Assembly: GCA_036788095.1 (NCBI GenBank)
Contig: DAIQOA010000001.1
Coordinates: 3,948 to 67,947, forward strand
Direction of reading: 5' to 3'
Length of the DNA stretch: 64,000 bases
Source of the DNA: a bacterium
GTDB taxonomy: Bacteria; Zhuqueibacterota; Zhuqueibacteria; Residuimicrobiales; Residuimicrobiaceae
Position 1 is the stretch's first letter. Each line of letters begins with the position of its first letter. The position numbers and the translations under genes were made by a program. Below are positions 34,603 through 46,894 of this stretch, one piece after another. The notes below the pieces were generated by a model. The model ran no database searches. It worked only from the letters and a program-made list of their open reading frames with translations, and was not told the DNA's origin.

Positions 34603-35922
34603 GTGGCGCATCAACCCAAATTACACGAAAAAATATTCCTTGGCCTGATCATCGGCAGCCTGGCCGGCCTGATCGTTCAATACTCCGGTCTTTCCCAGGA
34701 AACGATACAAACGCTCACCGTTTTTATCAAACCGGTGGGCGATATCTTTTTGCGCATGATCTTTATGATGGTCATCCCGCTTATTCTCAGCGCGCTGTCC
34801 CTGGGAGTGGCGGATCTGGGCGATGTGAGCCGCATCGGCAAGATCGGATTGCGCACCCTTGGCTACACCTTGATCGTCTCGGCGATCTCGGTGATCATCG
34901 GCATTGCGCTGGTGACGCTGTTCAAACCCGGCGAGGCCCTGTCCACCGACGATCGCACCATGCTGATCGAGCGTTTTGCCGGCAGCACGCAGATGCTGAA
35001 TCAGGCGGTGGCTGAGGTCAAGAGCCGGTCCGTCTCTGAAGTGATCACCTCTCTGGTGCCGAAAAACCCGATTGAGGACATGGCCCGTGCCTTTGATCCA
35101 TCGTACCGCGGCGGTGGGATTCTGGCGATCATGTTTTTCAGCCTGATGATCGGAATCGCCCTGTCCTCCTGCCATCAACGCAAGACCGCGGTTCTAAAAC
35201 AGTCGCTGGAAGGGTTGTATGAGATCACCATGAAAGTGATCTCCATCGCCATGCGCCTGGCGCCCTACGGCGTGGCGGCGATGTTGTTCAACCTGACCGC
35301 CACCATGGGCTTTTCCATCCTGCTGGTGCTGTTGCGTTTTGTGTTGGTGGTCCTGGCCGGTCTGCTGATCCATCAGTTCATCACCTACTCGTTGCTGCTG
35401 AAATATCTCGGCAAAATGAGCCCGGGATTTTTTTTCCGCAACATCCGTGAGGTGATGCTGATGGCTTTTTCCACCAGCTCCAGCAACGCCACGCTGCCCA
35501 CCACCATCCGCGTCACGGTTGAAAACCTGAAAATACCTCCTGACATCGCCCGGTTTGTGCTCACCTTGGGCAGCACGGCAAACCAGAATGGCACCGCGCT
35601 CTACGAAGGCGTTACGGTGCTGTTCCTGGCCCAGTGTTTCGGCGTACACCTGGCGTGGTCGCAACAGATCTTTGTGGTGGTGTTGGCGATTCTGGCCGGC
35701 GTCGGCACAGCCGGCGTACCCAGCGGATCGCTGCCGATCATCATGATCATCCTCATCACCATCGGTGTGCCCGCCGAGGCCATCGGTATTATCTACGGCG
35801 TGGATCGTATTCTGGACATGTGCCGTACGGTGTTGAATGTGACCGGCGATGTTACTGCCGCCGTGTATGTCAGCCGGTATGAAGAAACGCTGTCGGCCGC
35901 CGGGGAAGATGGGTGCGGATGA
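34603..35922 (+). CDS. dicarboxylate/amino acid:cation (Na+/H+) symporter, DAACS family (GltP/GltT-like)
   Basis: 439 aa from a GTG start. Conserved DAACS segments 'STSSSNATLPTT' and 'GVPSGSLPIIMIIL...NVTGDVT'. Confidence 0.8.
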   Translation: MAHQPKLHEKIFLGLIIGSLAGLIVQYSGLSQETIQTLTVFIKPVGDIFLRMIFMMVIPLILSALSLGVADLGDVSRIGKIGLRTLGYTLIVSAISVIIGIALVTLFKPGEALSTDDRTMLIERFAGSTQMLNQAVAEVKSRSVSEVITSLVPKNPIEDMARAFDPSYRGGGILAIMFFSLMIGIALSSCHQRKTAVLKQSLEGLYEITMKVISIAMRLAPYGVAAMLFNLTATMGFSILLVLLRFVLVVLAGLLIHQFITYSLLLKYLGKMSPGFFFRNIREVMLMAFSTSSSNATLPTTIRVTVENLKIPPDIARFVLTLGSTANQNGTALYEGVTVLFLAQCFGVHLAWSQQIFVVVLAILAGVGTAGVPSGSLPIIMIILITIGVPAEAIGIIYGVDRILDMCRTVLNVTGDVTAAVYVSRYEETLSAAGEDGCG

Positions 35923-36341: not shown

Positions 36342-36418
36342 AATCTTTTCGTGCGTTCCGCTCATCTCGTTGTTGGTTTTAGTTATTAACAAGATCTTTA
36401 TGAAACGGAGTGGAGTGC

Positions 36419-37921
36419 ATGAAGGATCAGCTGTTTACCCGTAAACCGCTTTGGCTTTTGCTGGAGGAATTAAAAGGAGAGAACCGGCTGCGCCGGGTGC
36501 TGGGACCGGTGCACCTGACCAGTCTGGGCGTCGGCGCGATTATCGGCACCGGCATCTTTGTGCTCACCGGCGTCGCCGCGCACGACAAAGCCGGCCCGGC
36601 TCTGGTGCTCTCGTTCGTCATCGCGGGCATCGCCTGCATCTTTGCCGCGCTCTGTTATGCCGAGTTCGCCTCCATGGTGCCGGTAGCCGGTTCGGCTTAC
36701 ACCTACGCCTACGCCACTCTCGGCGAGTTGTTCGCCTGGATCATCGGCTGGGATCTGGTGTTGGAATACACGGTCGCTTCGGCCGCGGTGGCGCACGGCT
36801 GGTCGGCTCATTTCCAGGATTTTATCGGCAGCTTTGGTTTGAAACTACCACACCGATGGACTACGCCGCCGTTTGATTTTGATCCGGCGACGGGACAATT
36901 TCTCGCCACCGGCGCCCATCTGGATCTCATCGCCGTGGCTATCACCGCCATCATCACCATCATTCTGGTTAAAGGCATTCGCGAGAGCGCTAATTTCAAC
37001 TCGGGCATGGTCGTCGTCAAACTGGCGATCGTTCTGTTTGTCATTGCCGCCGGGGCGTTTTATTTTGATGCGCAGAACCTCAAACCTTTCGCCCCCTATG
37101 GGTATTCCGGCTTGAGCTTCTTCGGCCATACCATCCTGGGACAGAGCGGACCGGGCGGTGAACCGCTGGGCGTTCTCGCCGGCGCGGCCATTATCTTTTT
37201 CGCCTACATCGGATTTGACTCGGTTTCCACCCACGCGGAAGAGGCCCGCCGACCCAATCGCGATGTGCCCATCGGCATCATCGCCTCGTTGATCATCTGC
37301 ACCGTGTTGTACATCGCCGTAGCGCTGGTGCTCTCCGGCATGGTGCCCTACGATCAGATCGACATCCACGCACCGGTGGCCAATGCCTTCAAGCAGAGGG
37401 GGCTCTACTACTCGCAACGCGTCATCGATATCGGTGCGCTCACCGGCATCACCTCGGTGCTGCTGGTGATGATGTTGAGCCAGCCGCGCGTGCTTTTGGC
37501 CATGGCCCGTGACGGCCTGTTGTCGCAAAAATTTTTCGGCGCCATTCACGACCGGTTTCGCACGCCGTGGAAATCCACCCTGATGACCGGCGTGGTGGTG
37601 GCGGCGCTCTCCTCGCTGATTCCCCTGCGCATTCTGGCCGATCTCACCAACATCGGCACGCTGCTGGCCTTTGTGATCGTTTGTTCGGCGGTGCTGATCA
37701 TGCGCAAAACACATCCGGAGGCGGACCGGCCGTTTCGCGTGCCCTATGCTCCGCTCACCCCGATCCTGGGCATTCTGTTTTGCCTGGTGCTGATGTTCTC
37801 ACTGCCGTCGGAAAACTGGTTCCGTCTGCTGGTGTGGCTGCTCATCGGTTTCGCGATTTATTTCGGATATGGCCGGCGGCACAGCGTATTGGAAAAGATG
37901 CGGCGGCAGGGCAAACTGTGA
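36419..37921 (+). CDS. APC-superfamily amino acid permease (cationic amino acid transporter-like)
   Basis: Start MKDQLFT with GGAGTGGAG RBS. 'LTSLGVGAIIGTGIFVLTG' is the APC consensus region; 12 TM architecture. Confidence 0.8.
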   Translation: MKDQLFTRKPLWLLLEELKGENRLRRVLGPVHLTSLGVGAIIGTGIFVLTGVAAHDKAGPALVLSFVIAGIACIFAALCYAEFASMVPVAGSAYTYAYATLGELFAWIIGWDLVLEYTVASAAVAHGWSAHFQDFIGSFGLKLPHRWTTPPFDFDPATGQFLATGAHLDLIAVAITAIITIILVKGIRESANFNSGMVVVKLAIVLFVIAAGAFYFDAQNLKPFAPYGYSGLSFFGHTILGQSGPGGEPLGVLAGAAIIFFAYIGFDSVSTHAEEARRPNRDVPIGIIASLIICTVLYIAVALVLSGMVPYDQIDIHAPVANAFKQRGLYYSQRVIDIGALTGITSVLLVMMLSQPRVLLAMARDGLLSQKFFGAIHDRFRTPWKSTLMTGVVVAALSSLIPLRILADLTNIGTLLAFVIVCSAVLIMRKTHPEADRPFRVPYAPLTPILGILFCLVLMFSLPSENWFRLLVWLLIGFAIYFGYGRRHSVLEKMRRQGKL

Positions 37922-38035: not shown

Positions 38036-38887
38036 TCAGCCCGCCAGTTGATGCAGATGCTGATAGCTGCTCGCCACGGCATCCAGCACCGACCCCTCAC
38101 AGCGATCCTGCTCCACCACCAGCCACTGAGCGCCGGCTTGGCGGCCCGCCTCGATAATCCCCTTGATGTTCATCACGCCTTGACCCACCGGTGCAAAGGT
38201 ATGCGGTTCGCCGGCGGTCATGTCCTTCATGTGCAGCAGAGGACAACGGTTTTGCAGTTTTTTGATCAGCACGATGGGATCCAGCCCGGCATGCTGCACC
38301 CAGTAGGTGTCGATCTCCATCTTGACCAGTTCGGCATCGGTCCCTTGCAGCAGCTGATCAAAGATGGAAGGCCCGTCCGCGGTTTGAAATTCAAAGTCAT
38401 GGTTATGGTAGCACAGCTGCATTCCAGCTTGCTTGATTTTTTCTCCCGCCTGGTTCATGGCATCGGCAAACGCCGCAACGCCATCCACTCCTTTTTCGCG
38501 GAACTCGCTCGGCATCGAGGGGCAGATGATGTAGGGACTGGCGATGGCGGCGTTGAATGCGATGGTCGTGTCCACTGTCTCCGGCATCAAAGCGCCAAAG
38601 CCCTCATGAGTGCCGCAGCAGCGCAGATTCAACCGTTTCATCAGATCGCGCACCTGTAGCGCCGAAAGACCGCCATAGCCGGCAAACTCGACGGCGGGAT
38701 ATCCCAGGCCCGCGACTTTTTCCAAAGTGCCGGTAAAATCGTTCTGCATCAGATCGCGCAGGGTGTATAACTGGATGCCAATGCCAAGCTTTTTCTTTGT
38801 GCTGCATCCTGCGGCCAGGGTTGCCAAGGCGGTTGCCGCCAGCGTCCATCTGCCGAATTGTCGGCGGGAAACGGGTTCGTCAAACAT
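38036..38887 (-). CDS. Tat-exported sugar-phosphate isomerase/epimerase (xylose-isomerase-like TIM barrel) lipoprotein
   Basis: Start MFDEPVSRRQFGRWTLAATALATLAAGCS (twin-arginine + lipobox). TIM-barrel 'AP endonuclease 2/xylose isomerase-like' fold with 'CYHNHDFEF' metal-binding region. The ORF caller's start at 38941 is less likely. Confidence 0.65.
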   Translation of the reverse strand: MFDEPVSRRQFGRWTLAATALATLAAGCSTKKKLGIGIQLYTLRDLMQNDFTGTLEKVAGLGYPAVEFAGYGGLSALQVRDLMKRLNLRCCGTHEGFGALMPETVDTTIAFNAAIASPYIICPSMPSEFREKGVDGVAAFADAMNQAGEKIKQAGMQLCYHNHDFEFQTADGPSIFDQLLQGTDAELVKMEIDTYWVQHAGLDPIVLIKKLQNRCPLLHMKDMTAGEPHTFAPVGQGVMNIKGIIEAGRQAGAQWLVVEQDRCEGSVLDAVASSYQHLHQLAG

Positions 38888-38993
38888 AGTCTTTCTCCCT
38901 TGTATACATGGAATGTGAATCGTTTTCCAGTGTACAAACATTTCCTGATAAATGAAACAGTTTTCTTGTTCAGGGCCGAGGTGTCTTTTTTTC

Positions 38994-39022
38994 TTGGATA
39001 TTCGGACGCTTTTTAATATTAT
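38994..39022 (+). promoter_or_regulatory. putative promoter (-35 TTGGAT, 17 nt, -10 TATTAT) of the citDE-citF operon
   Basis: TTGGAT at 38994-38999, a 17-nt spacer, and TATTAT at 39017-39022. This implies a ~150-nt leader to the 39177 start. Confidence 0.35.
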
Positions 39023-39176
39023 ACCGGTGCTGCGGCGGATGGGTTTTAACCCAGCCAGCCGCCACGACCGGTCGCTCTGCCTGCACGCGAACGCCCAGTG
39101 AAACCGTTTTCAGAAACAGGCCGGTTTGAACGATCTTCTCGAAATCCATCCACCATCCATGGAAAAGCATAACGAT

Positions 39177-40352
39177 ATGTCCGAGACCAACGAACGTTAT
39201 TGCGCCGGACGCGATCAAAAGGGCGACGTGTGGATCGAATGGACGCCGGCGCCGTCCCGGGAGATTCATCTGCAGAGTTCGGTAAAGGCTTTGTTCGGCC
39301 CGCACCTGCTGGAGGTGATCGACCGCACGTTGACCGAGCTGGGCCTTGCAGAGGCCCGCGTGGTGGTTCAGGACCAGGGGGCGCTGGATTTTGTCATCGC
39401 CGCGCGGCTGGAGGCCGCGGTGGGCCCGGTGACCGGGAAAAAGCTGGCGCTGAACGCGCGTGCCACTGCCGTCCCGCAGGGAAAACGGCTGCGCCGCACC
39501 AGGCTCTATTTGCCGGGCAATAATCCGGACTTGATGATCAACGCCGGACTCTATGGCGCGGATTGCCTGATCCTGGACCTGGAAGATTCTGTAGCGCCTG
39601 CCGAAAAGGCGGCGGCGCGGGTTCTGGTTCGTCATGCCCTGGCGCAGGTGGATTTCGGCCTTTCGGAAAGGATCGTGCGCGTCAATCCCCTGGCCTCGCC
39701 CTACGGCGGTGAGGATCTGGATGCGATCGTTCCCATGGCGCCGGACGCGCTGCTCATCCCGAAATGTGAGGGCCGCAACGATATTCTCAAGGTGGAGGAG
39801 CGGGTCTCGAGCCTGGAAAAGCGGTTCGAACTGATTCATCCGATCCCTCTCATCGGCCTGATCGAATCGGCGAAAGGGGTCGTCAATGCCGCCGAGATCG
39901 CCCTGGCTGGCGATCGTTTGGTGGCGCTCTGCTTCGGCGCGGAAGATTTCACCGCCGACATCGGTGTGGATCGCACGGCCGACGGCCGGGAAAGTTTTGT
40001 GGCACGCAGTCAGGTGCTGCTGGCCGCCAAAGCGGCCGGACTGCAGGCGCTGGATACGGTCTATGCCAATGTGCTGGATGAAGCCGGCCTGACGGACAGT
40101 GCCCGGGAGGCGGTGGCTCTGGGCTTTGACGGCAAGGGGGTCATTCATCCCAGCCAGATCAGGCCGGTCCATCAGGCTTTTTGTCCGACAGCGGAACAGA
40201 TCGACAAGGCGCAGCGGATCGTCGCCGCCATGCACGAGGCCCTGGAAACCGGATCAGGCGTTACGGCGCTGAACGGCAAGATGATCGATGCGCCTGTACT
40301 GATGCGGGCGGAACGGACCTTGGCCTTGGCCAAAGAGTACGGCCTGCTTTAA
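39177..40352 (+). CDS. citE: fusion protein: citrate-lyase acyl-carrier (CitD-like) N-domain + citrate lyase β / citryl-CoA lyase (CitE, HpcH/HpaI family)
   Basis: The N-terminal ~90 aa align with CitD ('AGRDQKGDVWIEW...SSVKALFG...QDQGALDFVIAARLEAA' vs E. coli 'AGTLESGDVMIRI...SSVEKQFG...DDKGALDCILRARLEAL'). The remainder is clearly CitE ('LYLPGNNPDLM...DLEDSVAPAEK', 'GFDGKGVIHPSQI', 'LNGKMIDAPV'). Start chosen at MSETNERY; the ORF caller's start is 39126. Confidence 0.75.
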   Translation: MSETNERYCAGRDQKGDVWIEWTPAPSREIHLQSSVKALFGPHLLEVIDRTLTELGLAEARVVVQDQGALDFVIAARLEAAVGPVTGKKLALNARATAVPQGKRLRRTRLYLPGNNPDLMINAGLYGADCLILDLEDSVAPAEKAAARVLVRHALAQVDFGLSERIVRVNPLASPYGGEDLDAIVPMAPDALLIPKCEGRNDILKVEERVSSLEKRFELIHPIPLIGLIESAKGVVNAAEIALAGDRLVALCFGAEDFTADIGVDRTADGRESFVARSQVLLAAKAAGLQALDTVYANVLDEAGLTDSAREAVALGFDGKGVIHPSQIRPVHQAFCPTAEQIDKAQRIVAAMHEALETGSGVTALNGKMIDAPVLMRAERTLALAKEYGLL

Positions 40353-40391
40353 CCCATGGGCGGTGTGTCTTTTCTCACGTGAGGACCGGTA

Positions 40392-41942
40392 ATGGATTTT
40401 ATTGCCAATGCGATCGGCCGCCTGGTGCCGACCGAACTGGAGGGACGCCGGCTGAGACCCTTTGCCGGCGCGCATGCCGATCAGGCCGGTGGAACCGGCT
40501 ATGGCGGCCGCATTCGTGCAGCCGCTCAATATACCAACAAGCTGCTCCCTGATCTGGACGCCGCTATCGAGGCGTGCGCTATTCGCGATGGCATGACCAT
40601 CTCTTTTCATCATCACCTGCGCAACGGCGACATGCTCATCAATCTGGTGATGGAAAAGCTGGCGCAGCGCGGCTTGAAGGATCTGGTGCTGGCGCCGTCC
40701 GCGCTGTTCCCCACCCATGAAAAATTGGTGGCGTTGATCGAGTCCGGCGTGATCTCTCATGTTGAAGGATCCATGAACGGCCCCATCGGCCGCGCCTGCT
40801 CGTTGGGCAGAATGAAAAAAGCCGCGGTGCTGCGGTCCCATGGCGGCCGCTTTCGCGCCATTCAAGATGGGGACCTGCATATTGATGTGGCGTTTATCGC
40901 CGCCCCCTGCAGCGACGCGCACGGCAACGCCAATGGGCTGAACGGCCCATCCGCCTGTGGACCGCTGGGCTTTGCCCTGGCTGATTCGTTGTGGGCAGAC
41001 CGGGTCGTGGTGGTCACCGATCATCTGGCGCCGTTTCCCTGCCATCCCTGGACCATCGAGGGCGGCCATGTGGATTACGTAGTGCAGGTGGAGCGCATCG
41101 GCGATCCCGCACAGATCGTCTCCGGCACCACCGAGATCACCCGCAGTCCCACCCGGCTGCTCATCGCAGAATACGCCGCGCGTTTTGTCCGCGATTCAGG
41201 CTTGATGACCGAACCCGGCTTTTCTTTCCAGGCCGGCGCCGGCGGCGTGTCGTTGGCGTTTGTCAAATTTATGGCCGACTATATGGCCGCGGCCGGCGTC
41301 ACCGCTGACTTTGTCCGCGGCGGCAGCACGCGGTTCATGGTCGACTTGCTCAACCGCGGGCTAACGCGTTATCTTTTGGACGGCCAGAGTTTCGACCGGG
41401 ATACGGTCGCATCGCTTCGGGACAATCCGCGGCACGTGGAGACCAACCCGTTCGTCTCCTACAATTATCACAGCAAAGGCTGCTTTGCGCAATGGCTGCA
41501 GGTTTCTGTTCTCGGCGCCACGGAGATCGATTTGGATTTCAATGTCAACGTCAACACCCACTCGGACGGCTGGCTGCTGCACGGCATCGGCGGTTTTACC
41601 GATGCGGCCGACGCCCGTGTGACCATGATCACCGCGCCGCTGGTGCGCAACCGCGTGCCCATCATTCTGGATCGCGTCACCACCGTAACCGCGCCGGGTG
41701 AAATGATCGATGTGATCGTCACCGAGCGCGGCATCGCCATCAATCCACGACGCGAGGATCTGCGGGACCGCCTCAGGCACAGTTCGTTGCCGATCGTGCC
41801 GATAGAAAAACTTGCCGCCATGGCCATCGCCATGACCGGCGTACCGGAAAAACCGCAATTCAGCGACCGGGTGGTGGCGCTCATCGAATTCCGCGACGGC
41901 ACCATCATCGACATAGTCAGGCAGTTGATCCCACGCGAATAA
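40392..41942 (+). CDS. citF: citrate lyase α subunit / citrate CoA-transferase (CitF)
   Basis: 516 aa. 'GMTISFHHHLRNGDMLINLVM' vs E. coli CitF 'GMTVSFHHAFRGGDLTVNMVM'. Colinear similarity through to the C-terminal 'DRVVALIEFRDGTIIDIV'. Confidence 0.85.
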   Translation: MDFIANAIGRLVPTELEGRRLRPFAGAHADQAGGTGYGGRIRAAAQYTNKLLPDLDAAIEACAIRDGMTISFHHHLRNGDMLINLVMEKLAQRGLKDLVLAPSALFPTHEKLVALIESGVISHVEGSMNGPIGRACSLGRMKKAAVLRSHGGRFRAIQDGDLHIDVAFIAAPCSDAHGNANGLNGPSACGPLGFALADSLWADRVVVVTDHLAPFPCHPWTIEGGHVDYVVQVERIGDPAQIVSGTTEITRSPTRLLIAEYAARFVRDSGLMTEPGFSFQAGAGGVSLAFVKFMADYMAAAGVTADFVRGGSTRFMVDLLNRGLTRYLLDGQSFDRDTVASLRDNPRHVETNPFVSYNYHSKGCFAQWLQVSVLGATEIDLDFNVNVNTHSDGWLLHGIGGFTDAADARVTMITAPLVRNRVPIILDRVTTVTAPGEMIDVIVTERGIAINPRREDLRDRLRHSSLPIVPIEKLAAMAIAMTGVPEKPQFSDRVVALIEFRDGTIIDIVRQLIPRE

Positions 41943-42091
41943 ACTCAGGGCGATGCCGCCTTGCCGGTTCCATTACATCAAGTCGGCGAAAGGCGGTACC
42001 ACGCGGCCAAACACGATGGGCCCGCGGAACATACGAACTGCTGCTATGGCGGGCGCGGAGCGGCATAGGCGAAGACGAAAAGGATTTTCAT

Positions 42092-42120
42092 TTGACTTTT
42101 ATGCATTAAAACGGTATATT
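42092..42120 (+). promoter_or_regulatory. putative promoter of secDF (-35 TTGACT, 17 nt, -10 TATATT)
   Basis: TTGACT at 42092-42097, a 17-nt spacer, and TATATT at 42115-42120, ~45 nt upstream of the secD ATG with an AGGAGG RBS. Confidence 0.45.
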
Positions 42121-42167
42121 TATAAGCTTTTTTTGAAATTATCACATTCCCAGGAGGTCTCACTTCG

Positions 42168-44216
42168 ATGCAGCGCAAAATCCTATTTAAAATTGTTCTG
42201 GTCGTATTGCTTGTCGCAGCTGCTCTGTATTCTCTATACCCCACCTTTCAGTTGAGTGGGCTGCAAAAGCAGGAAACACAATTGGTTGGACAAATCAATC
42301 ATGTGTCCGGGTTGTCTGCTGCGGATATTGAAGGCGCAATGGCAAGCGGCGACCTTGAGAATCAGCTCCGTGCCATCGTGAAAAGCGGCGATCAGGATAA
42401 GGCTCTGGCGCTGGCCGATCAATTGATCAAATTGAACGCCCGCATTGCCAAGGTGGAAGGCAAGGCGATTCATCGCGGATTGGATCTGCAGGGCGGCACC
42501 TACATGATCTATGAGGTGGACCTGCGACGGTTCTTGGATGAGTTGGCCAAGAACAAGGATGCCCGGCTGGACGATATTTTAAAAGCCACGCAAAAAGAGT
42601 ATGAAGACGGCGGTGATTTTTTCAGCGCCCTGCAGGCCAATTTTGGAAACCGCGATATCAAACTCAACCGCTATTTCGGCCGTCGCGGTCAATCGGACGA
42701 TGAGATTCTCAAAGAGCTCACGGCCCAGTCTGAAGACGCGGTCAACCGCACGCTGGAAGTGTTGCGCAACCGCGTGGACCAGTTCGGCGTTTCCGAACCC
42801 ACCATTCAGAAAGAGGGCAGCCAGCGCATTATCATCGAGCTGCCGGGCATTCAAAACATTCAACGCGCTAAAAAAGTTATCGGCACCACGGCGTTGCTCG
42901 AGTTCAAGCTGGTTAAAGAGGCGGACGTCGTCGGTTCGGTGCTCAACGATATCGATAAAGTGCTGCGCAGCAAACGTCAGGGGCTGGCGGCCGAGATGAG
43001 CGCGCCCGCGGATACCGCCAAGCCCGCGGATGGAAAAGAAGCCAGCGACAAGCAGGTCAGCCTGAACGAGCTGTTCGGCGACCAGTCGGCGGAACCCAGT
43101 GCGGCGTCCTCGGACACGTCGGTGCTCGTTGATCAAAAGACCTTTGAAGAAAAACCCTTCACTTCGCTGTTGCGCGGCATGGGCGGCCGGTATTCGGATG
43201 CCATCGCGGTTCCGGCGCAGAACGTCCGGGCGGTACAACGCATTCTGCAGATGCCCGAGGTTGTCGGCGTGATCCCCAGCGATGTGCAGTTTTTATTTTC
43301 CAACAAAAGCTATGATTCAGGCGACATGTCCTTTCAGCAGCTCTATCTGGTGAAAAAAGAGGCAGAGCTGCAAGGCTCCATGCTTACCAATGCCGACGTG
43401 CAGATCAGCGGCGGGGACGCCAATCTATCGGCCGGCGGCGCTGAAGTGCATATGACGCTCAACAGCGAGGGCACCAAGCTGTTCGCCAAAACCACGGGCA
43501 TGAACGTCGGCAAGCAGCTGGCGATCGTGTTGGACGGCAAGGTCGGTTCGGCGCCCAACATCAAGGAGAAAATTCCCTCCGGCAGCGCCCGCATCGATGG
43601 CATCGGCAACATGGATGAGGCCAAGGACCTGGCATTGATGTTGCGGGCAGGCGCGCTGCCCGCCCCGGTTCATGTGCTGACCGAAAACACCGTGGGTCCT
43701 TCGCTGGGCCAGGATTCGATCAATTCAGGCGCCCGATCCGCCGTCATCGGACTTTTGCTGGTCATGGTGTTCGTGGTGGTCTACTATAACGCCGTGGGAT
43801 TGATCGCCAACTTTGCGCTGATCCTCAACGGTCTGTTTGTCATGGCGATCATGGCCGGTTTTCATTTCACCCTGACGCTTCCGGGCATCGCCGGCTTTAT
43901 CCTGTCCGTGGCCATGGCGATCGACTCCAACGTTCTCATCAACGAGCGCATTCGTGAGGAGCTGCGCGGCGGCAAGACGATCCGCGCCGCCATCGAGACC
44001 GGCTATGAACGGGCGTTCGTTACCATCCTTGATTCCAACGTCACCACCCTGATCACCGGTCTGGTGCTTTACACCTTTGGGACCAGTTCGGTGCGCGGCT
44101 TTGCGGTCACCTTGTGCATCGGCATTCTGGTGTCCATGTTCACCGCCATTTTCATCACCCGGCTGGTGCTGGATTACTTTACCACCCATTATGCGATTAA
44201 AAAGCTTTCCATTTAA
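42168..44216 (+). CDS. secD: protein translocase subunit SecD
   Basis: N-terminal TM, large periplasmic domain, then the C-terminal 6-TM region 'GLDLQGGTYMIYEV' and '...AIDSNVLINERIREE...' as in SecD. Confidence 0.9.
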   Translation: MQRKILFKIVLVVLLVAAALYSLYPTFQLSGLQKQETQLVGQINHVSGLSAADIEGAMASGDLENQLRAIVKSGDQDKALALADQLIKLNARIAKVEGKAIHRGLDLQGGTYMIYEVDLRRFLDELAKNKDARLDDILKATQKEYEDGGDFFSALQANFGNRDIKLNRYFGRRGQSDDEILKELTAQSEDAVNRTLEVLRNRVDQFGVSEPTIQKEGSQRIIIELPGIQNIQRAKKVIGTTALLEFKLVKEADVVGSVLNDIDKVLRSKRQGLAAEMSAPADTAKPADGKEASDKQVSLNELFGDQSAEPSAASSDTSVLVDQKTFEEKPFTSLLRGMGGRYSDAIAVPAQNVRAVQRILQMPEVVGVIPSDVQFLFSNKSYDSGDMSFQQLYLVKKEAELQGSMLTNADVQISGGDANLSAGGAEVHMTLNSEGTKLFAKTTGMNVGKQLAIVLDGKVGSAPNIKEKIPSGSARIDGIGNMDEAKDLALMLRAGALPAPVHVLTENTVGPSLGQDSINSGARSAVIGLLLVMVFVVVYYNAVGLIANFALILNGLFVMAIMAGFHFTLTLPGIAGFILSVAMAIDSNVLINERIREELRGGKTIRAAIETGYERAFVTILDSNVTTLITGLVLYTFGTSSVRGFAVTLCIGILVSMFTAIFITRLVLDYFTTHYAIKKLSI

Positions 44217-44257
44217 CCCGTGCTTCGGAGCGCTATCTATTCAAGAAGGAATTGACC

Positions 44258-45184
44258 ATGGAATTTTTTCGACAAACCAACTATGATTTCATCGGTATTC
44301 GCAAATACACCTATATCTTTTCGGCCGTCGTCACGGTCATCAGCCTGATCCTGATTTTGTTTGTCGGTTTTCACTACGGCATCGATTTCACCGGCGGCAC
44401 GTCGATGGAGCTCAAGTTCGCCAATCGCATCTCCATCGGCGACATCCGCGGCGCCGTCGGCAACGCCGGTTTCAGCGACACCGAGATCAAGCAGATCGGC
44501 CCCAAAGAGCGGAATGCCTATCTCATCCGCGTCGGCATGATGCAAGAGGGCATTCCGGTGGCGGACGCCATCCAGAGCCATTTCAGCCAGGTGTTCCCGG
44601 ACAATCCCTATGAAGTCCTCAGCGTCACCCAGATCGGGCCCAAGATCGGCGGCGAATTGCGCCGTGCCGGACTCATGTCCATCCTGGTGGCCCTGGTCGG
44701 CATGCTCATCTATATCGGCTGGCGGTTTGACAGCAAGTTCGCCGTCGGCGCCGTCATCGCCACCTTTCACGACGTGATTTTTGTCATGGGCCTCTTTGTC
44801 GTGCTGGGCCTGGAAATGACGTTGACGGTGTTGGCCGCCATTCTCACCATTGTCGGCTACTCGATCAACGACACCATTGTGGTGTATGATCGCATTCGCG
44901 AAAACCTCAAGATCCATCGTCGCGACAACCTGGCCACCATCATGAACCTGAGCATGAACCAGACGCTCAGCCGTACGCTGCTGACCGGCGTGTCCACCCT
45001 GGTTGTTTTGATCATCCTCTTTTTCATGGGCGGCGAGGTGATTCACGATTTTTCCCTCGTGTTGTTCATGGGCACGGTCATCGGCACCTATTCCTCCATC
45101 TGGGTCGCCTCCGCGCTGGTGCTGGATTGGAACACCCGGCTGGAAGCGAAAAAGCATAAAAAGCCGGCTACGCGCACGGCGTAA
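44258..45184 (+). CDS. secF: protein translocase subunit SecF
   Basis: Start MEFFRQ. 'GIDFTGGTSMELKF' and 'SINDTIVVYDRIREN' are SecF hallmarks. Confidence 0.9.
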   Translation: MEFFRQTNYDFIGIRKYTYIFSAVVTVISLILILFVGFHYGIDFTGGTSMELKFANRISIGDIRGAVGNAGFSDTEIKQIGPKERNAYLIRVGMMQEGIPVADAIQSHFSQVFPDNPYEVLSVTQIGPKIGGELRRAGLMSILVALVGMLIYIGWRFDSKFAVGAVIATFHDVIFVMGLFVVLGLEMTLTVLAAILTIVGYSINDTIVVYDRIRENLKIHRRDNLATIMNLSMNQTLSRTLLTGVSTLVVLIILFFMGGEVIHDFSLVLFMGTVIGTYSSIWVASALVLDWNTRLEAKKHKKPATRTA

Positions 45185-45201
45185 CGATCAGGGATCGTAT
45201 T

Positions 45202-45537
45202 ATGAAAATCGAACAACACCCGCTGGGCGACGTGGTGGTGCTCAGCCTCAGCGATAATATCATCGGCGCCTCCGACTCGGCGATGCTGAACGACAAAATA
45301 CACGAGCTGGCCGACGCCGGCAGCAAAAAAGTGGTTTTGGATTTCAGCCGGGTGCAATGGCTCAACAGCTCGGGCATCGGCACGGTCATCAGCGCCATGA
45401 CGACGCTGCGCAACGCCGGCGGTCATCTCAAAATGGCGGCGGTGCCGGATAAAATCATGACGATTTTAACCGTGACCAAACTGACGACGGTATTGGAAAT
45501 CTACCCCACGGTCCAGGCGGCTGTAGAGAGTTTTTAA
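45202..45537 (+). CDS. STAS-domain protein (anti-sigma-factor antagonist, SpoIIAA-like)
   Basis: 111 aa. 'VVLDFSRVQWLNSSGIGTVI' contains the conserved phosphorylatable Ser of SpoIIAA-type antagonists. Confidence 0.7.
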   Translation: MKIEQHPLGDVVVLSLSDNIIGASDSAMLNDKIHELADAGSKKVVLDFSRVQWLNSSGIGTVISAMTTLRNAGGHLKMAAVPDKIMTILTVTKLTTVLEIYPTVQAAVESF

Positions 45538-45570
45538 AGACTTGACACGCTCCGTCGATTTCATCACGCA

Positions 45571-45603
45571 AGACTCCGAACCTTCGCGGAACGGAGTCTT
45601 TTA
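45571..45603 (+). terminator. rho-independent terminator after the STAS gene
   Basis: AGACTCCG aaccttcgcggaa CGGAGTCT followed by TTTT. Confidence 0.5.
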
Positions 45604-45619
45604 CATTTAAGGGAAGATT

Positions 45620-46894
45620 ATGGCTGTTACGATTATCGTCGGCGCCCAATGGGGCGATGAAGGCAAAGGCAAAATCGTTGATCTGCTCAGCGCAGAAGTC
45701 GATGTCGTAGCCCGGTATCAGGGCGGACCCAACGCCGGCCATACGGTGGTGGTGGAGGAGGAAGAGATCGTTCTGCACCAAGTGCCCTCCGGCATCCTTC
45801 ATCCGCACACCCAGTGCATGATCGGCAACGGCGTGGTCATCGATCCGGTGGTGTTGATGGATGAAATCGGCTTTCTGGAGAAAAAAGGCATCACGGTACA
45901 GGGCAGGCTGTTCATCAGCCAGCGCGCCCATCTGATCATGCCCTATCACAAGCTGCTGGACGCCACGCGCGAGCGCCACTATGGATCGCGCAAAATCGGC
46001 ACCACCGGCCGCGGCATCGGGCCGGCGTATGTGGACAAATACGACCGCTGCGGCATACGGATCGTGGATTTGCTGGACCGGACCACCCTGAAGGAAAAGT
46101 TGCTCACTATCATCGAGAGCAAGAACAAGGTGCTGCAGCGCATCTATGACAGCGAGGCTATGGACGCGGAAAAAATCGCCAACGATTATGTCGAGTTCGA
46201 CCGCCGTATCGATTCGTATGTCAAGGATGTGTCGGTGCTCATCAACCGCGCCGTGGATGCCGGCAAGCGGGTGTTGATCGAGGGCGCCCAGGGCACCATG
46301 CTCGACATCGATTTCGGCACCTATCCCTATGTCACCTCCTCTAATCCCATCGCCGGCGGCGCCTGCACCGGGCTCGGAGTCGGTCCGACCAAGATCAACC
46401 GCGTGCTCGGCATCGCCAAAGCCTACACCACCCGCGTGGGCATGGGACCGTTTCCGACCGAGTTCGACGCGGCGTTCAGCGAACACATCCGCAAACTGGG
46501 CGGCGAATACGGCGCCACCACCGGCCGCCCCCGCCGCTGCGGCTGGCTCGATATGGTGGTGCTGCGCATGGCGGTCATGGTCAACGGTCTCACCGATCTG
46601 GCCATCACCAAACTGGATGTGCTGGATTCTCTGGATGAAATAAAAATCTGCACCGGCTACCGGACCGGCGGCCGGGAGCTGGAACATTATCCGGCGGAGC
46701 TGGATCTGCAGGAACAGGTGCAGCCGGTCTACGAAACCCATCCGGGGTGGAACCGCTCGACGCAGAACGCGCGCACCTTTGCCGAGCTGCCGGCCAATGC
46801 GCAAAGCTATCTCAAACGCATCGAAGAGCTGGCCGGCGTGCCGCTGTCCATCATCTCCGTCGGCTCCAGACGGAATCAGACGATCATCTTGTAG
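45620..46894 (+). CDS. purA: adenylosuccinate synthetase
   Basis: 'GAQWGDEGKGKIVD' P-loop, 'GTTGRGIGP', 'TTGRPRRCGW' are all PurA signatures. 424 aa. Confidence 0.95.
   Translation: MAVTIIVGAQWGDEGKGKIVDLLSAEVDVVARYQGGPNAGHTVVVEEEEIVLHQVPSGILHPHTQCMIGNGVVIDPVVLMDEIGFLEKKGITVQGRLFISQRAHLIMPYHKLLDATRERHYGSRKIGTTGRGIGPAYVDKYDRCGIRIVDLLDRTTLKEKLLTIIESKNKVLQRIYDSEAMDAEKIANDYVEFDRRIDSYVKDVSVLINRAVDAGKRVLIEGAQGTMLDIDFGTYPYVTSSNPIAGGACTGLGVGPTKINRVLGIAKAYTTRVGMGPFPTEFDAAFSEHIRKLGGEYGATTGRPRRCGWLDMVVLRMAVMVNGLTDLAITKLDVLDSLDEIKICTGYRTGGRELEHYPAELDLQEQVQPVYETHPGWNRSTQNARTFAELPANAQSYLKRIEELAGVPLSIISVGSRRNQTIIL

Follow-up and report, generated by a model that had tools for sequence, protein, structure and literature searches.

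Can a citrate lyase work when the serine that anchors its cofactor is gone? Citrate lyase is a textbook enzyme that needs a covalently bound cofactor resembling coenzyme A (CoA) and three dedicated helper enzymes; in Escherichia coli, the cofactor is 2'-(5''-phosphoribosyl)-3'-dephospho-CoA, and its attachment site is Ser14 of the acyl carrier protein (ACP) subunit, CitD. The question is raised by two adjacent genes, citDE and citF, in a 64,000-nucleotide stretch of DNA (here called the window) from a bacterium of the family Residuimicrobiaceae in the phylum Zhuqueibacterota (GenBank assembly GCA_036788095.1, contig DAIQOA010000001.1, positions 3,948 to 67,947 of the forward strand). The first gene encodes a CitD-like domain fused to CitE, with lysine in the column of the serine, and the second encodes CitF. 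From comparison with related loci, we think it probable that the pair forms a prosthetic-group-free, citrate-lyase-type enzyme that acts on free CoA thioesters and in which the CitD-like domain is functional.

In the classical enzyme, CitF exchanges acetyl for citryl on the thioester of the tethered cofactor, after which CitE carries out the cleavage (PMC10798043). The cofactor is built and attached by CitG and CitX and is acetylated by CitC (PMC10798043). The parts of the window on which the argument turns are the following.

39159..40352, + strand: citDE fusion gene, 397 aa from the ATG at 39159, with PF06857, PF03328, and PF15617 matches
39198..39434, + strand: CitD-like (gamma-subunit/ACP-fold) domain, approximately residues 14 to 92 of the 397-aa protein
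39219..39221, + strand: AAG codon of Lys21 (Lys32 of the TTG-started reading frame), in the column of E. coli CitD Ser14
39495..40349, + strand: CitE-type acyl-CoA lyase (beta-subunit) domain
40392..41942, + strand: citF, an alpha-subunit-type (family II) CoA/ACP-transferase of 516 aa, 39 nucleotides 3' of citDE

The gene pair and its domains

An earlier note on this DNA, made from the letters alone, had described a CitD-CitE fusion gene followed by CitF, and matches to PF06857, PF03328, and PF04223 bore this out. On the mechanical citDE open reading frame (ORF), which spans 39126-40352 (+) and opens at the TTG at 39126, PF06857 (CitD/MdcC ACP) covers aa 25 to 99 (E = 6e-17; 62 bits against a cutoff of 25) and PF03328 (HpcH/HpaI/CitE) covers aa 124 to 342 (E = 1.7e-60), both in Pfam. 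The ATG at 39159 is most likely the true start because the closest homologs and their called genes are 391 to 397 aa long. The CitF of the window is matched over its full length by PF04223 (E = 2e-151) and scores 553 bits with the citF model TIGR01584, over the cutoff of 501; in the PDB, it matches 2hj0 (E = 1e-133) and 1xr4 (E = 1e-128). The CitD, CitE, and CitF sequences are 34%, 41%, and 45% identical, respectively, to their E. coli counterparts.

The CitE domain has a TIM-barrel fold and intact catalytic motifs, with the Mg-binding Glu/Asp and the C-terminal lid Asp present. Both parts of the fusion fall under their NCBIfam equivalog cutoffs: the CitD part scores 51.9 bits against 63.5 with the citD model (TIGR01608), and the CitE part scores 308 bits against 443 with the citE model (TIGR01588), passing only the superfamily model PF03328. 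Searched by itself against the PDB, the CitD-like domain matched neither a CitD nor an MdcC structure; the only hit, to L7/L12 (E = 0.27), was due to chance.

A basic residue in place of the anchor serine

The carrier loop reads AGRDQKGDV in the window and AGTLESGDV in E. coli, and the window loop holds no Ser or Thr anywhere. Lys21 falls in the Ser14 column in all three alignments (MAFFT, hmmalign, and tblastn); this is where the earlier note had placed a lysine. The CitDs of E. faecium and Gluconobacter, from annotated citCDEFXG operons, have the loop AGTLESSDV. The window agrees with the classical CitDs in the next two columns, where these have G or S (column 15) and D (column 16), so the alignment register is secure.

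Replacement of the serine is a family trait and not a one-off loss. Among the 120 closest homologs listed, all with both PF06857 and PF03328, column 14 is K in 117. Pooling the fused domains gave 188 with a residue at this column, of which 120 have K, 64 R, 2 S (one of them through an alignment artifact), 1 H, and 1 Q. In the fused family, S or G follows at column 15 and D at column 16 (190 of 197), giving a loop consensus of G-x3-[K/R]-[S/G]-D in the PF06857 domain, to which the window conforms. Our scan of species-representative genomes yielded 80 related loci in which column 14 is mostly Arg; they come from Calditrichota, KSB1, Ignavibacteria, Bacteroidales, Acidobacteriota, Gemmatimonadota, Planctomycetota, Cloacimonadota, Marinimicrobia, WOR-3, Anaerolineales, and others. 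Only one fused protein has a true Ser at column 14 (GKGVSSDC); it is encoded at 830-2044 of L038, a 3.5-kb contig of a metagenome-assembled genome (MAG) labeled Desulfuromusa; its Ser is probably a secondary Arg-to-Ser change because the accompanying CitF nests inside the Arg-type clade.

The variant is also found outside fusions. When the domain alone was used to search 50%-identity representatives, the stand-alone CitD-like proteins of ~90 aa that were recovered had S in 53 cases, K in 33, and R in 22. Since stand-alone Lys-type proteins exist, fusion is not essential to the variant. A 414-aa protein (P0126) has the reversed order, with CitE at the N terminus and a Lys-type CitD-like domain (AGTDRKGDVVV) at the C terminus, and the pairing of a CitD-like domain with CitE therefore arose more than once. 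The top matches of the same representative search, P0121 (2108 aa), P0122 (2758 aa), and P0124 (597 aa), were discarded as spurious; they are long tandem-repeat proteins in which short pieces of the query matched repeatedly.

A phylogeny of CitF, which the earlier note had proposed as a check, puts the Lys/Arg-type CitFs in one clade set apart from the four classical CitFs. With TIGR01584, the Lys/Arg-type CitFs score 478 to 575 bits and a Ser-type control scores 570; this resemblance is why pipelines call them ordinary citF.

Absence of the accessory genes from the loci searched

We searched for CitC, CitX, and CitG with the E. coli proteins as seeds and with three-seed profile hidden Markov models (HMMs), and the same HMMs recovered 6 of 6 cit genes in an unannotated Azospirillum control. 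Neither type of search found any of the three in the 64-kb window, in agreement with the earlier note, which had seen no such genes in the neighborhood, and neither found any in the 80 related genome loci with flanks of ±10 kb. Precomputed Pfam annotation likewise contained no PF08218, PF03802, or PF01874 in the close relatives (L085 to L089), in two distant Lys-type fusions (L098 and L099), or in the loci with stand-alone Lys-type proteins (L090 to L094). Accessory genes are thus present in 0 of 90-odd Lys/Arg-type loci, against 5 of 5 Ser-type controls: CitC, CitX, and CitG adjoin citDEF in E. coli, on an E. faecium plasmid, on a Gluconobacter plasmid, in Azospirillum, and in a metagenomic locus (L097), the last with CitX fused to CitG.

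The carrier domain is under selection

Purifying selection acts on the CitD-like domain: in a comparison of the window with a relative of 91% identity, the ratio of nonsynonymous to synonymous substitution rates (dN/dS) is 0.17 for this domain, 0.13 for CitE, and 0.07 for CitF. Besides the loop Asp, 11 classical CitD positions (S35, V37, F41, G42, D67, G69, A70, L71, A77, R78, and E80) are kept across the Lys/Arg family, that is, over more than 10 phyla. AlphaFold2 models the whole CitDE fusion with a predicted local distance difference test score (pLDDT) of 91 and a predicted template modeling score (pTM) of 0.88, the CitD-like part having a pLDDT above 90. Selection, conserved positions, and model together argue for a domain with a retained or changed function, a decaying relic being unlikely, and the near invariance of a basic residue where the cofactor was once attached favors a new role over neutral loss.

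A proposed citrate-lyase-type reaction on free CoA esters

In the mechanism that we propose, CitF would use a free acyl-CoA, in the simplest case acetyl-CoA, to load citrate or a close 2-hydroxy-tricarboxylate with CoA; cleavage of the CoA ester so formed, by the CitE domain, would then yield acetyl-CoA and a 2-oxo-acid. CitC, CitX, and CitG would be unneeded because cellular acetyl-CoA, as the donor, would act catalytically. With Lys or Arg, the serine that was linked through a phosphodiester gives way to a basic side chain, and we conjecture that the loop binds the phosphates of free CoA or aids the assembly of CitF with CitE, docking, or channeling. Dimroth and Eggerer (1975) and Dimroth et al. 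(1977) are said to have found that the isolated alpha and beta subunits of Klebsiella citrate lyase accept acetyl-CoA/citrate and citryl-CoA; by that account, the subunits act on free CoA esters, so that the chemistry can proceed without the tether.

Several points weigh against this proposal. The role suggested for the Lys/Arg residue is a conjecture, and CitF, which scores as an ordinary citF equivalog, shows in itself no sign of a changed mechanism. The absence of accessory genes covers only the 64-kb window and flanks of ±10 kb around the related loci. Finally, about two thirds of the family have a Ser one position later ([K/R]-S-D), and this residue is modifiable in principle. We ruled out that it is a shifted attachment site because its column is G or S in the classical CitDs and Gly in the window. 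A Cys follows the Asp at column 17 (R-S-D-C) in 43 of the 64 Arg-type domains, the Lys-type domains having L, I, or V there. A role for this Cys as a protein-thiol acyl carrier was considered and ruled out in view of its restriction to those 43 Arg-type domains and of the Val in the window.

Comparison with known systems

The window pair shares with classical CitDEF (EC 4.1.3.6; Klebsiella pneumoniae, E. coli, and lactic acid bacteria) homologous alpha, beta, and gamma modules and the gene order D-E-F, and the same two-step chemistry, acyl exchange and then C-C cleavage, may be expected of it. It differs in that Ser14 is replaced by Lys, gamma and beta form one protein, the 64 kb yielded no citC, citX, or citG, the CitD and CitE parts are under the equivalog cutoffs, CitF belongs to a separate clade, and the genes lie among housekeeping genes and not in a citrate-fermentation locus.

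The logic proposed here, in which a CoA-transferase acts first and a CitE-fold lyase then works on free CoA esters, is that of human CLYBL, of Ict/RipA and Ccl/RipC in the itaconate route of Pseudomonas/Yersinia, and of succinyl-CoA:malate CoA-transferase and malyl-CoA lyase in Chloroflexus. Both in structure and in sequence, the window CitE domain is best matched by CLYBL. The transferases of these systems are unrelated, however, whereas the window has CitF (family II) and a retained CitD-like domain, and to our knowledge CitF has elsewhere been seen only together with a tethered cofactor. Nor does the CitE part pass the equivalog models of the free-CoA lyases: it scores 189 bits against a cutoff of 375 with RipC_Ccl (NF038242) and 71 against 500 with malyl-CoA lyase (NF041626).

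Citrate is cleaved via free citryl-CoA, by a CitE-related lyase, in the Ccs/Ccl system of Hydrogenobacter and Aquifex and in ATP-citrate lyase. There, citryl-CoA is made with ATP, whereas here a CoA-transferase would form it without ATP. Both systems are mentioned in the 2012 Ignavibacterium album genome paper (PMC3362086), which describes IALB_1146/IALB_1147 as an "ATP-independent citrate lyase" with a CitE/CitD fusion and CitF, the same pairing as in the window. The parts of that paper that deal with the pair take it as a standard citrate lyase, possibly closing the reverse tricarboxylic acid (TCA) cycle, and leave the serine and the accessory genes unmentioned (PMC3362086). The Ignavibacteria MAG relatives examined are of the Arg type and have operons with homoaconitase-like and PrpD-like genes, whereas the window is of the Lys type and has a different context. 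Beyond the I. album paper, the literature that we searched contained nothing relevant on a Ser-less CitD subfamily or on an ACP-independent CitF.

A wide subfamily therefore appears to dispense with the anchor serine and the helper enzymes and yet to keep the carrier domain, with a basic residue fixed in it. Automated annotation calls its members ordinary citD, citE, and citF, although, judging by these sequences, the enzymes so annotated probably use free CoA esters. Where citrate fermentation or a reverse TCA cycle has been inferred from Lys/Arg-type genes, the mechanism and the product, acetate or acetyl-CoA, are presumed.

Gene neighborhood and substrate

The genes around the pair bear on its substrate. 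Those nearest to it in the window are as follows, the first three being upstream of citDE and assigned by Pfam and the last group being downstream of citF.

34603-35922, + strand: SDF-family symporter
36410-37921, + strand: cationic-type amino-acid permease
38036-38941, - strand: divergent xylose-isomerase-like TIM-barrel gene
42168..46894, + strand: secD, secF, a STAS-domain gene, and purA

The upstream order of symporter, permease, and TIM-barrel gene is the same in relatives of 91% and 64% identity and differs in more distant ones, and the order citDE-citF-secD-secF-STAS-purA is kept in the lineage of the window down to ~54% identity. No citrate transporter lies near citDE-citF in the window, and the locus looks less like an inducible one for citrate fermentation than like one with a constitutive role in central metabolism. 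Because the window CitF passes the citF equivalog cutoff, citrate is our default substrate, with only moderate confidence.

It is possible, if on balance doubtful, that the same prosthetic-group-free mechanism serves a substrate other than citrate, such as homocitrate, cleaved to 2-oxoglutarate and an acetyl unit, or another alkyl-citrate or citramalate; in the homocitrate version, which we entertain just as tentatively, the cleavage would end a reverse alpha-aminoadipate route of lysine or 2-oxoadipate catabolism. The gene contexts of the wider family speak for such a substrate. In 47 of the 80 loci, an aconitase-family gene, an isocitrate/homoisocitrate-dehydrogenase-family gene, or both stand beside citDE-citF. 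The fused aconitase-family neighbor scores 755 bits with the "homoaconitase" model TIGR00139 (cutoff, 530), and the best NCBIfam matches of the dehydrogenase-family neighbor are homoisocitrate dehydrogenases, under cutoff. PrpD/MmgE-family genes and genes for an HD-domain protein of ~180 aa are also frequent there, the HD protein occurring in 30 loci. In Cloacimonadota and some Bacteroidales, saccharopine dehydrogenase (PF03435/PF16653), an AlaDH/LKR-like gene, and an aldehyde dehydrogenase are part of the same citDE-citF string, which suggests a link between the Lys/Arg-type pair and lysine and 2-aminoadipate metabolism. The cationic-type amino-acid permease and the SDF symporter upstream of the window pair, and the score of the CitE part under the citE cutoff, lean the same way.

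Against a substrate other than citrate stand the window and its lineage, which have none of the aconitase-, dehydrogenase-, PrpD-, or saccharopine-type neighbors and keep citDE-citF with secDF and purA, and the CitF score over the citF cutoff; moreover, no homocitrate lyase or homocitryl-CoA appeared in the literature that we searched. The operon contexts of the relatives fit either the citrate-isocitrate-2-oxoglutarate segment or the homocitrate series (reverse alpha-aminoadipate lysine catabolism, with a "homocitrate lyase"), and they point to citrate or homocitrate-type tricarboxylates instead of malyl-/citramalyl-CoA. They also suggest a possible undescribed route of lysine or 2-oxoadipate degradation.

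The arrangement of these neighbors recurs from locus to locus. A co-directional string of genes for an isocitrate/homoisocitrate-dehydrogenase-like protein, the ~180-aa HD protein, the fused "homoaconitase," a PrpD/MmgE-like protein, CitDE, and CitF occupies the ~10 kb upstream of citDE (which lies at locus position ~10001) in L007, L009, L012, L021, L022, L034, L041, L048, L050, L070, L072, and others. Saccharopine-pathway loci, with saccharopine dehydrogenase and the AlaDH/LKR-like gene directly 5' of CitDE-CitF, are L006 (267-3299), L049, L051, and L062 (18567-21149). The last of these has the aldehyde dehydrogenase and the LKR-like gene downstream of its homoaconitase genes.

If the preferred mechanism on free CoA esters is right, one further speculation follows: with the carrier free, another acyl-CoA could donate, and acetyl-CoA could be a net product. 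We think it rather unlikely, though worth stating, that the pair thereby runs an open cycle in which a succinyl-CoA-type donor drives the conversion of citrate (or homocitrate) to acetyl-CoA and oxaloacetate (or 2-oxoglutarate), reversibly and without ATP, as an unrecognized class of prosthetic-group-free enzyme. Such a cycle, if real, would give reductive or reversible TCA-type metabolism an energy-neutral step for citrate cleavage or synthesis; where homoaconitase, homoisocitrate dehydrogenase, and saccharopine genes share the operon, it would be the last step of reverse alpha-aminoadipate lysine breakdown.

Improbable alternatives: a relic carrier or a hidden holo-ACP enzyme

The earlier note had proposed that the module is independent of an ACP and its CitD fold a structural relic. 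The first half of this is in keeping with our comparative evidence, which strongly favors free CoA and no prosthetic group, whereas the second half fits it poorly, and an inert relic now seems improbable. Loss of the serine, failure to find accessory genes, and the score of the CitD part under the citD cutoff speak for a relic. Yet the dN/dS of the domain resembles that of the catalytic CitE domain, the basic residue at column 14 is near-invariant while D16 and the 11 further classical positions persist across phyla, the fold is modeled with high confidence, and in other lineages the domain survives as a separate gene beside CitE.

The remaining explanation, an ordinary holo-ACP citrate lyase with citC, citX, and citG elsewhere in the genome and the cofactor on a different residue or attached by different chemistry, draws on our view of this genome being 64 kb and on the many relatives that carry Ser beside the basic residue, but it is very improbable, given a window loop with no hydroxyl residue to modify, accessory genes near none of the 90-odd Lys/Arg-type loci against all five Ser-type ones, and a column 15 that is G or S in classical CitDs without being their attachment site.

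Other features of the window and of related loci

A promoter/terminator scan of 38800-42400 gave nothing exceeding shuffle expectation, and Rfam and tRNA scans of the window were empty. Two further ORFs were rejected as genes: a 100-aa ORF just past citF (41953-42255, +), which has no family match and an implausible, basic, low-complexity sequence, and a 421-aa ORF antisense to citDE (38970-40235, -), a shadow ORF with a non-gene look in GC-rich DNA.

Other contexts of the family differ from those above. In five Bacteroidales loci (L026, L028, L064, L067, and L077), genes for methylmalonyl-CoA epimerase, a carboxyltransferase, and OAD gamma- and beta-type subunits of a Na+-pumping decarboxylase lie directly 5' of CitDE-CitF, and in the Lys-type L099 (8067-9966), genes for an RnfC-like Fe-S flavoprotein and a bacterial microcompartment shell (BMC) domain protein are immediately 5' of citDE. 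Stand-alone Lys-type CitD and CitE, with no CitF nearby, lie in L090 (7680-8824) between rpoD/dnaG and a serine hydroxymethyltransferase gene. In two loci from human gut metagenomes (L093/L094, 1-10562), stand-alone Lys-type CitD, CitE, and CitF come after AcnX, a TRAP transporter, a GGGtGRT protein, and LeuC/LeuD-like aconitase subunits; these genes, without citC, citX, or citG, adjoin an integrase and MobL, and the whole looks like a mobile tricarboxylate-catabolic island.

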